A DNA stretch of 64,000 nucleotides from Synergistota bacterium (GTDB lineage: Bacteria; Synergistota; GBS-1): assembly GCA_021159885.1 (NCBI GenBank), contig JAGHDO010000033.1, positions 7,370 through 71,369 on the forward strand. Direction: 5' to 3'. Below are positions 1 to 1,624 of the stretch, piece after piece. The translations under genes were made by a program, and so were the position numbers. The number at the start of each line of letters is the position of its first letter. Positions within the stretch are counted from its first letter, which is position 1. A model generated the notes under the pieces. That model saw only the letters and a list, made by a program, of their open reading frames with translations, did not search any database and was not told where the DNA came from.

Positions 1-553
1 CGCCGGCGGATAGTTTAGAAGAAAAAAGCCCAAAGCTGCTCCTACAAGAGGAAAAGCTTCCTCCACACCTCTAATAGCAAGTCCCAAAAAGGTAATAGCT
101 CCAACCCCAGAAGCAAGTCCATCTATTCCATCCACAAAATTAAAAGCGTTTGTTACTGAAACTATCCAAAAAATACCAAGAGCTGAATCCATAAAGGCGT
201 TTCCAAAGATCAGTGGACGCTTCAGATAAATCCAAATAGCTGCAGATACGATCTGAAATACAAGCTTGAGGGAGGGAGAGATATCGAAAACATCATCTAC
301 AAATCCCACGAGGACTAAAAGAGAAGCGATCGTGAGCAGCTCAAGATTGCTTCCACATGCCATTGAACACATAGCCATAGAAAGGAAAACGGTGATCCCT
401 CCGCCGAGAGCTACTGGAGAAAAGTGCTTTTTCCTCCCAAAGGGCAAGTCTAAAAGCTTATACCTATACGATAATCTCAAAAGGAGAAAGCCCAAGGAGA
501 AAGATAGCAAAAACGATAAGATGAAAGCCTTAACGTGTTCCGAAAATTCTATC
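1..553 (-). CDS. Glycosyltransferase family 4 (WecA/TagO/MraY-like undecaprenyl-phosphate sugar-1-phosphate transferase), N-terminal part; gene continues past the window start. Absent from the ORF track because it has no in-window stop.
   Basis: Manual minus-strand translation is open from a GTG at ~553 to position 1: [15 protein letters not shown]...[23 protein letters not shown]. The DGIDGLASG motif is diagnostic of the MraY/WecA family. RBS AGGTGA sits 5 nt upstream of the GTG. Confidence 0.7.
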
Positions 554-1624
554 ACCCGCATCACCTAGTCCTGGGACTATATAACCGTGATCATTGAGCC
601 TCTCGTCAAGGGCAGCGGTTAATATCTCCACATCAGGATGTGCTTTATGAACCTTGTCGACACCCTCAGGAGCAGCTATAATGCACAGGAATTTTATGCT
701 AGTCGCTCCTTTTTCCTTGACCAACCTTATAGCCTCGACTGCCGATCCTCCCGTAGCAAGCATAGGATCGAGTATTATAACATCTCTTTCCGCTATATCC
801 GACGGAAGCTTGCAATAATAAACTACCGGCTCCAGCGTCTTTGGATCTCTGTATAAGCCTATATGCCCTACTTTAGCAGCAGGCATAAGCCTCAGAACAC
901 CATCCACCATGCCTAACCCTGCTCTCAGTATGGGAACCAGTGCCAGCTTTTTACCCGCTATCACAGACGTCTTGGCCTTAGCTATAGGGGTCTCTACCTC
1001 TGTCTCAACGAGGGGAATATCCCTCGTCGCTTCATACAACATGAGCCCCGCCATCTCCGCCACCAGCTCTCTAAACTCCTTAACGCCGGTGTTCTTATCC
1101 CGTATTATAGAAAGCTTATGCTGTATAAGAGGATGATCGATTATAAAGAGCTTTCCATTCCCGCCTCTTCTTTCCCTGCTTAATCTCTCTTCGAGCGCCT
1201 TTATTCGCTGAAATCTTCTAAGATGTCTTCCTTCCTCGAACGATGTCTGAAGCCACTCCTTAACGATCATCTTGGCAAGCTCTGGCCCGGTATTTCTCCC
1301 CCCTAAAGCAAGGACATTAGCGTTGTTATGCGCTCTTGAGGCCCTGGCGGTAAATATGTCATGACATAAGGCTGCATAGACGCCGGGATATTTATTGGCA
1401 ACTATAGACATACCTATACCTGTTCCACATATTAATATGCCTCGGGAAAACTCTCCCGAGGATATGAGCATAGCCACCTTGGATGCTATTTCAGGATAAT
1501 CCACAGGTCTTGTATCAAAAGTACCGAAATCTTCAAAGTTGTATCCCTCCTCACGAAGGAAAGCTTTTATATCTTCTTTTAGCTCATAACCTGCGTGATC
1601 CGCGCCCAAGGCTATTCTATCCAT
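530..1624 (-). CDS. Bifunctional fusion: ribose-5-phosphate isomerase B (N-terminal ~150 aa) fused to uracil phosphoribosyltransferase (C-terminal ~210 aa)
   Basis: N-terminus [17 protein letters not shown]...[16 protein letters not shown]...[10 protein letters not shown] matches the RpiB/LacAB family. C-terminus [20 protein letters not shown]...[12 protein letters not shown]...[12 protein letters not shown] matches Upp nearly residue for residue. Single uninterrupted 364-aa ORF; RBS AAGGAGGTG upstream. Confidence 0.85.

Follow-up and report, generated by a model that had tools for sequence, protein, structure and literature searches.

A single-frame fusion of ribose-5-phosphate isomerase B and uracil phosphoribosyltransferase in Synergistota, probably derived from neighbouring genes

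In a 64,000-nucleotide stretch of DNA from a Synergistota bacterium (GTDB lineage Bacteria; Synergistota; GBS-1), taken from GenBank assembly GCA_021159885.1, contig JAGHDO010000033.1, positions 7,370 to 71,369 of the forward strand and hereafter called the window, a single open reading frame (ORF) joins ribose-5-phosphate isomerase B (RpiB) to uracil phosphoribosyltransferase (Upp). Taken as a whole, we consider it very probable that this gene encodes a genuine bifunctional RpiB-Upp polypeptide that arose by the fusion of neighbouring genes, that its domains are independent and pass no intermediate directly to one another, and that it is transcribed by read-through from upstream. Judged by their sequences, each half appears to be an ordinary member of its own family and both look active, and the gene seems to be a new sequence in an existing, unstudied fusion family.

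The profiles of both families are covered almost from end to end. Pfam LacAB_rpiB (PF02502) matches amino acids 4-141 of the protein (3e-57; profile positions 1-138 of 138), and UPRTase (PF14681) matches amino acids 162-363 (5e-80; profile positions 2-206 of 206). Among the NCBIfam equivalogs, the rpiB model TIGR01120 matches over profile positions 1-142 of 143 and, with 183.1 bits, clears its cut-off of 138.65; the Upp half exceeds the cut-offs of both the upp model TIGR01091 (303.1 versus 208.35 bits) and NF001097 (300.9 versus 114 bits). A reading of this DNA made from its letters alone (the sequence-only reading) had proposed a single-frame fusion of full-length RpiB and full-length Upp, and the Pfam and NCBIfam searches confirm it. 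They also uphold its assignment of the N-terminal half to RpiB rather than to a LacAB-type enzyme, since the LacA and LacB equivalogs reach 70-116 bits against cut-offs of 164-325: the lacB models NF006381 and TIGR01119 gave 116 versus 234 and 91 versus 312 bits, and the lacA models NF006380 and TIGR01118 gave 91 versus 164 and 70 versus 181 bits. On the plus strand of the same interval, the ORF list contains short ORFs embedded in the fusion gene and nothing longer.

The RpiB half aligns without gaps, at 50% identity in each case, to residues 1-147 of Escherichia coli RpiB and to residues 2-148 of the 149 of the Clostridium thermocellum enzyme. Because the alignment is ungapped, E. coli RpiB numbering applies directly, and all nine functional residues compared (D9, H10, C66, T68, H99, N100, R133, H134 and R137) are present. 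Published RpiB structures define the roles of Arg133/His134/Arg137, which bind phosphate, as well as those of Cys66/Thr68, Asp9/His10 and His99/Asn100. Across 78 fusion homologues the catalytic positions are invariant or show rare, mostly conservative substitutions, with T68 replaced by S in 11 of the 78 and H99D, R133K and H134Y found in one to three each. By analogy with E. coli RpiB, the domain would interconvert ribulose-5-phosphate and ribose-5-phosphate, with Cys66 acting as the catalytic base. In solved RpiB structures the phosphate-binding Arg and His are contributed by the partner subunit of a dimer, and the RpiB domain of the fusion would therefore still have to dimerise.

In the Upp half, amino acids 157-364 can be matched, with no gap, to positions 2-209 of the 209-residue Bacillus caldolyticus Upp (PDB 1i5e), with 74% identity and an E-value of 6e-102. 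Both the loop that binds phosphoribosyl pyrophosphate (PRPP), DPMLATGGS at amino acids 286-294 of the fusion protein, and the C-terminal uracil-binding motif at amino acids 348-359 are intact, and their residues are invariant or nearly so across the fusion family. The domain is thus predicted to convert uracil and PRPP to uridine monophosphate (UMP) and pyrophosphate. No initiator Met is left for it, and the position that matches Upp residue 2 is preceded by GGN.

Between the two halves lies a linker of about seven amino acids, since the RpiB alignment extends to residue 148 of 149 in the C. thermocellum protein and residue 2 of Upp aligns at amino acid 157. The sequence-only reading had quoted landmarks for the end of RpiB and the beginning of Upp; both occur in the protein, but the RpiB half does not stop at the quoted RRF, and its C-terminal helix continues to about amino acid 149-152. 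Mean column conservation among the 78 fusion homologues is 0.64 in the RpiB half and 0.79 in the Upp half and falls to 0.17 in the linker, the length of which varies from 4 to 20 amino acids, always in frame. In an AlphaFold2 model built on these 78 homologues, the C-terminal RpiB helix spans amino acids 133-152. The whole protein has a mean predicted local distance difference test (pLDDT) of 89.8 and a predicted template modelling score (pTM) of 0.61. Within RpiB, pLDDT is 92-98 per 10-residue block over amino acids 1-130, then 90 and 83 in the C-terminal helix, and it falls below 50 at amino acids 154-156. The model fits two confidently folded domains whose mutual orientation is not confidently fixed, and we picture two independent catalytic domains carried on a short, flexible and unconserved hinge.

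The same architecture is widespread. We searched a collection of 5.8 billion proteins, clustered at 90% identity, and considered the best 120 clusters. All of them (120/120) were fusions of 358-383 amino acids with both Pfam domains and 57-100% identity, covering 99-100% of the query and drawn from NCBI, JGI, ENA and Logan assemblies. One of them (P0001) is a 100% identical protein from an independent Logan assembly, and the closest non-identical relatives share 76-80% identity. One of these relatives lies on a JGI contig with 'GBSSSed77C' in its name, which we take to denote a hot-spring sediment sample. Named sources of the fusion include Synergistetes/Synergistota, Synergistales, Synergistaceae, Thermovirgaceae, Cloacibacillus and Fretibacterium, and it is also found in Clostridia (Candidatus Gallacutalibacter stercoravium, 'Clostridia bacterium' and 'Clostridiaceae bacterium'). 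The pairwise divergences of the RpiB and Upp halves are correlated (Mantel r 0.54; 0/999 permutations reached the observed value), as expected if the two halves are inherited as one unit. A scan of genome contigs with exact peptide words of the window's protein gave, among the matches listed, unfused Upp or RpiB from unrelated phyla (Bacteroidales, Nitrospirota and Myxococcota) and no Synergistota, and so it does not show how widely the fusion is spread. The fusion architecture is present in hundreds of database entries and is real but not rare. The sequence-only reading had not recognised it as a described one; in fact it is abundant in public protein databases, where the named NCBI and JGI entries are called only 'uracil phosphoribosyltransferase', and our full-text literature searches found no paper on an RpiB-Upp fusion. 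As a separate observation, one member of the cluster of P0003, P0121 (NCBI MEM2028825.1), is at least 90% identical to Synergistota fusions and carries the label 'Candidatus Bathyarchaeia archaeon'; it probably comes from a bacterial contig mis-binned into an archaeal metagenome-assembled genome (MAG).

The relatives of the two genes suggest how the fusion may have come about. In a second library, clustered at 50% identity, the main fusion clade collapses to one representative (P0111), and four more clusters of full-length RpiB-Upp proteins appear (P0134, P0137, P0139 and P0145). A rough neighbour-joining tree of Upp domains, which is crude and carries no taxon labels, places these four among unfused Upp proteins and the Synergistota/Clostridia fusions in one large clade, a pattern that suggests one old and successful fusion event and, besides it, several independent ones. 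The library also holds two fusions of a low-molecular-weight (LMW) phosphotyrosine phosphatase to Upp (P0150 and P0183), a uracil/xanthine permease-Upp fusion of 630 amino acids (P0147) and a tandem RpiB-RpiB protein of 308 amino acids (P0167). In two further members (P0143 and P0178), pieces of an amino-acid kinase or of a radical SAM domain stand ahead of Upp; such proteins may be chimeric gene calls.

The scan of genome contigs also yielded unfused, adjacent rpiB/upp pairs at three loci (L038-L040). In a Bacilli MAG (CANQJU010000004.1, locus L038, 4435-4458), and likewise in L039, the separate genes overlap by about 24 nucleotides in different frames, an arrangement that looks like a precursor state one indel away from fusion. 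The order of genes at a Clostridia fusion locus is prfA-sua5-[fusion]-deaminase-GT4. Firmicutes typically carry sua5-ywlE (LMW phosphatase)-rpiB-...-upp, in this order, ahead of the atp operon, and our search results fit this arrangement; the LMW phosphatase is the other neighbour of upp in this conserved cluster. That LMW-phosphatase-Upp fusions exist, and that unfused rpiB and upp overlap, argues for neighbour-gene fusion rather than a selected channel. The fusion probably arose by loss of the stop codon and a short spacer between neighbouring, translationally coupled rpiB and upp genes, which stand in a conserved cluster prfA-sua5-(LMW phosphatase)-rpiB-upp-GT4, and it would since have been inherited as a unit throughout the large Synergistota/Clostridia clade.

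The sequence-only reading had suggested metabolic channelling from the pentose-phosphate pathway into pyrimidine salvage. This is not supported, because the product of RpiB is ribose-5-phosphate and the substrate of Upp is PRPP. On the pathway, ribose-5-phosphate isomerase is followed by PRPP synthetase (Prs) and only then by Upp, so that the two reactions stand two steps apart on one route. Since PRPP synthetase must act between them, direct channelling is unlikely and strict channelling implausible. Set beside channelling enzymes of the tryptophan synthase type, the fusion differs on each count: ribose-5-phosphate is not a substrate of Upp, the hinge has a conservation of 0.17, and the model has the low hinge pLDDT and the pTM given above. 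PRPP synthetase is not part of the fusion protein, and none was found among the 15 window ORFs, of about 60, that were scanned against Pfam (ten ORFs of about 300-330 amino acids, the partial GT4 gene and four ORFs of the decarboxylase operon). A tblastn search of the window found no second copy of rpiB or upp. The main effect of the fusion would be that an enzyme of the pentose-phosphate pathway and one of pyrimidine salvage are necessarily made in a 1:1 ratio, and perhaps that they co-assemble through each domain's own dimer interface. Upp is a dimer or tetramer in solved structures, and because both RpiB and Upp self-associate, the fusion protein probably forms a higher-order homo-oligomer.

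An adaptive coupling of the two enzymes, which gives the channelling idea a workable form, is the alternative that fares best, and we think it improbable. In this case an oligomeric scaffold, built through the dimer or tetramer interfaces of the two domains, would recruit PRPP synthetase so that material is channelled from ribulose-5-phosphate through ribose-5-phosphate and PRPP to UMP, or the RpiB domain would sense pentose phosphates and tune Upp. Such coupling is consistent with the way a phylum-level clade has kept the fusion, neither active site being lost, and, from pathway knowledge, with the position of the two reactions on one route. However, the intermediate enzyme is missing from the protein and from the window ORFs scanned, and the short, unconserved and predicted flexible hinge, like the pTM of 0.61, gives no sign of a conserved interdomain interface. 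Moreover, Upp is fused elsewhere to an LMW phosphatase and to a permease, and RpiB-Upp fusions seem to recur, which is the pattern of neighbour-gene fusion. A more specific form of the idea, in which a mixed-oligomer scaffold docks PRPP synthetase to form a salvage metabolon, or in which pentose phosphates bound at the RpiB site tune Upp allosterically, we hold to be quite improbable. If true, a metabolon or allosteric tuning of this kind would be an undescribed link between pentose-phosphate status and pyrimidine salvage.

It is very unlikely that one half is a dead structural or regulatory remnant (a pseudo-enzyme), or that the N-terminal half is a LacAB-type galactose-6-phosphate isomerase. 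Such a view could appeal to the NCBI and JGI names, which mention uracil phosphoribosyltransferase only, and to Pfam PF02502, which spans RpiB and LacA/LacB alike. Against it, the RpiB equivalog scores above its cut-off and the LacA/LacB equivalogs far below theirs, no catalytic or phosphate-binding residue of RpiB is missing and in the 78 homologues these residues are invariant or rarely substituted, and the Upp half has intact motifs and 74% identity to a characterised Upp. Hardly credible at all is an artefact, in which rpiB and upp are really two genes and a sequencing or assembly error has erased the stop codon or caused a frameshift between them: separate adjacent, even overlapping, rpiB and upp genes in other lineages, from which a single indel would make such an ORF, and a few short split members (149 and 209 amino acids) inside the fusion clusters would fit it, but the fused frame recurs in all 120 best clusters from independent assemblies across 57-100% identity, the linker differs by whole codons with both frames staying joined, no ATG start is left for Upp, and an identical protein comes from the independent Logan assembly. 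The conservation of the fused frame over so many independent assemblies also disposes of the sequence-only reading's worry about a lost stop or frameshift at the junction.

The coordinates of the fusion gene, its parts and its surroundings are collected in Table 1.

Table 1. The fusion gene and adjoining features of the window (aa, amino acids; nt, nucleotides)
Feature	Position	Strand	Details	Basis
Complete fusion ORF, RpiB-linker-Upp	530..1624	minus	364 aa, ATG start, stop codon 530-532	ORF list, Pfam, NCBIfam
RpiB domain	1178..1624	minus	aa 1-149	Ungapped PDB alignments, catalytic residues, AlphaFold2
Interdomain linker RERRGGN	1157..1177	minus	aa 150-156	Ends of PDB alignments, column conservation, AlphaFold2
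Upp (UPRTase) domain	533..1156	minus	aa 157-364	Alignment to 1i5e, TIGR01091
Ribosome-binding site AAGGAGGTG	1632..1640	minus	7 nt upstream of ATG 1622-1624	Read from sequence
Intrinsic-terminator-like hairpin and U-tract	1641..1679	minus	Between OAD_beta gene and fusion gene	Terminator scan
Na+-pumping decarboxylase beta subunit (OAD_beta)	1700..2821	minus	Upstream	Pfam OAD_beta 1e-159
GT4 glycosyltransferase gene (WecA/TagO-like)	1..561	minus	Downstream, cut by window edge	Pfam Glycos_transf_4, translation

The OAD_beta gene is the last of a methylmalonyl-CoA decarboxylase-type operon. The genes ahead of the hairpin, both here and in the closest relatives, encode in order methylmalonyl-CoA mutase, MeaB, epimerase, carboxyltransferase, gamma subunit, biotin carrier and the Na+-pump beta subunit. 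After the hairpin come the fusion gene and the GT4 gene, within which the window ends; the relatives continue with UDP-N-acetylglucosamine (UDP-GlcNAc) 2-epimerase (wecB), MurA and further genes. Synteny with OAD_beta is seen in loci L085-L087, and L088 holds only the last 28 codons of this gene at the end of its contig. The ATG of the GT4 gene, at 559-561, overlaps the last 32 nucleotides of the fusion gene, and the same overlap and gene order recur in L085-L088 and L081, which points to co-transcription and probably to coupled translation. The GGAGGTG of the ribosome-binding site is kept in relatives, reading GGGGGTG in L087 and L088.

The hairpin upstream of the fusion gene has a perfect stem of 14 base pairs (1647-1678) with a 4-nucleotide loop, which the terminator scan extends to 15 pairs (1646-1679). 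The 88-nucleotide region that contains it folds at -32.6 kcal/mol (z -4.7), and the hairpin is unique within the window. It is kept in the four related loci L085-L088, where one stem pair, G-C in the window, is A-U, both partners differing, which indicates that the pairing itself is preserved. Only a sub-clade shows this arrangement: a more distant Synergistota locus lacks the hairpin, and a Clostridia fusion locus has, in the gap, a good promoter-like site of the extended -10 type. A promoter scan, run with an E. coli-type consensus that may not fit Synergistota, detected nothing resembling a sigma-70 site from the hairpin to the ATG. Two candidates were rejected: the nearest on the minus strand, at 1897..1869 with 9/12 matches, falls within the upstream gene and does not exceed what shuffled sequence would give, and TTGCAG-17-TAAACT, an element read by eye that overlaps the upstream gene's stop codon, is weak (7/12) and not conserved in relatives. 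With a permissive threshold, an Rfam scan of positions 1-3000 revealed neither a PyrR-binding element nor a riboswitch or leader upstream, and gave only sub-threshold matches to the hairpin. The terminator and promoter scans agree with the sequence-only reading, which had placed the ribosome-binding site directly after the terminator of the decarboxylase operon with no promoter visible in the gap. Because the fusion gene has no recognisable promoter of its own and lies right behind the hairpin, with its 3' end overlapping the GT4-wecB-murA string, its transcription probably depends on read-through from the decarboxylase operon before it, and we regard this as the simplest inference.

Several points weigh against our overall account. 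In addition to the crudeness of the Upp tree and the doubtful fit of the promoter consensus, the strong terminator directly upstream argues against efficient read-through. The Pfam scan covered only about 15 of the roughly 60 ORFs, so that the absence of PRPP synthetase from the window is not established. The long retention of the fusion across the phylum could reflect a selective advantage, for example through a PRPP synthetase complex or stabilisation of the Upp oligomer. Lastly, both enzymatic activities are predictions from sequence.

Other features of the window were recorded alongside the fusion gene. It contains a class A RNase P RNA (338 bits) at 27617-27966 and a 6S RNA (78 bits) at 34657-34826, both on the minus strand, and no tRNA genes in its whole 64 kb. 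Besides the WecA/TagO-like GT4 gene that overlaps the fusion, there is a second, MraY-like GT4 gene at 20550-21497 on the minus strand, in a cluster of cell-division and cell-wall genes. In the relatives, the WecA/TagO-like GT4 gene is followed by UDP-GlcNAc 2-epimerase and MurA, and all of these use UDP-GlcNAc. A long co-directional string of envelope genes stands behind the hairpin without a visible promoter.

The fusion has consequences for annotation as well as for the study of fused enzymes. In many Synergistota and some Clostridia, names that refer to Upp only conceal the ribose-5-phosphate isomerase, and the hidden RpiB can give a false gap in the non-oxidative pentose-phosphate pathway of automated metabolic models. 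The family also provides a clean and well-sampled case of neighbour-gene fusion, with an overlapping precursor, parallel fusions of Upp to its other neighbour and a freely drifting linker. A comparison of fused and split versions could tell whether fusions of non-consecutive steps bring a kinetic benefit.

Finally, we compared the fusion with known systems. Stand-alone RpiB proteins (E. coli RpiB/AlsB, 1NN4 and 2VVR; C. thermocellum, 3HE8) agree with the N-terminal half in length, in the Cys66/Thr68 catalytic type and in the phosphate-binding Arg133/His134/Arg137, and are 50% identical to it across 147 residues aligned without gaps, but in the fusion the C-terminal helix continues without a stop through the 7-residue hinge into a second enzyme. 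Stand-alone Upp proteins (B. caldolyticus, 1I5E; Thermus thermophilus, 1V9S; Thermotoga maritima, 1O5O) have a PRPP loop and uracil motif of identical type, with 74% identity to 1I5E; here, in contrast, Upp lacks its own initiator Met, and the attachment of its N-terminus to RpiB may limit how the dimer or tetramer packs. LMW-phosphatase-Upp proteins (P0150 and P0183) and the permease-Upp protein (P0147) likewise carry Upp at the C-terminus behind a typical upp neighbour. They differ in the N-terminal partner, and only the permease fusion has an obvious direct hand-over of substrate. The closest counterparts are the fusions already in databases (MDK2871295.1, MCS7233194.1, HIS70248.1 and NLY96747.1), which have the same architecture and domain order at 57-80% identity and, in the closest relatives, the same succession of decarboxylase operon, hairpin, fusion, GT4, wecB and murA. 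No essential difference separates them from the protein of the window, which is at most 80% identical to its non-identical relatives and has a linker sequence of its own.

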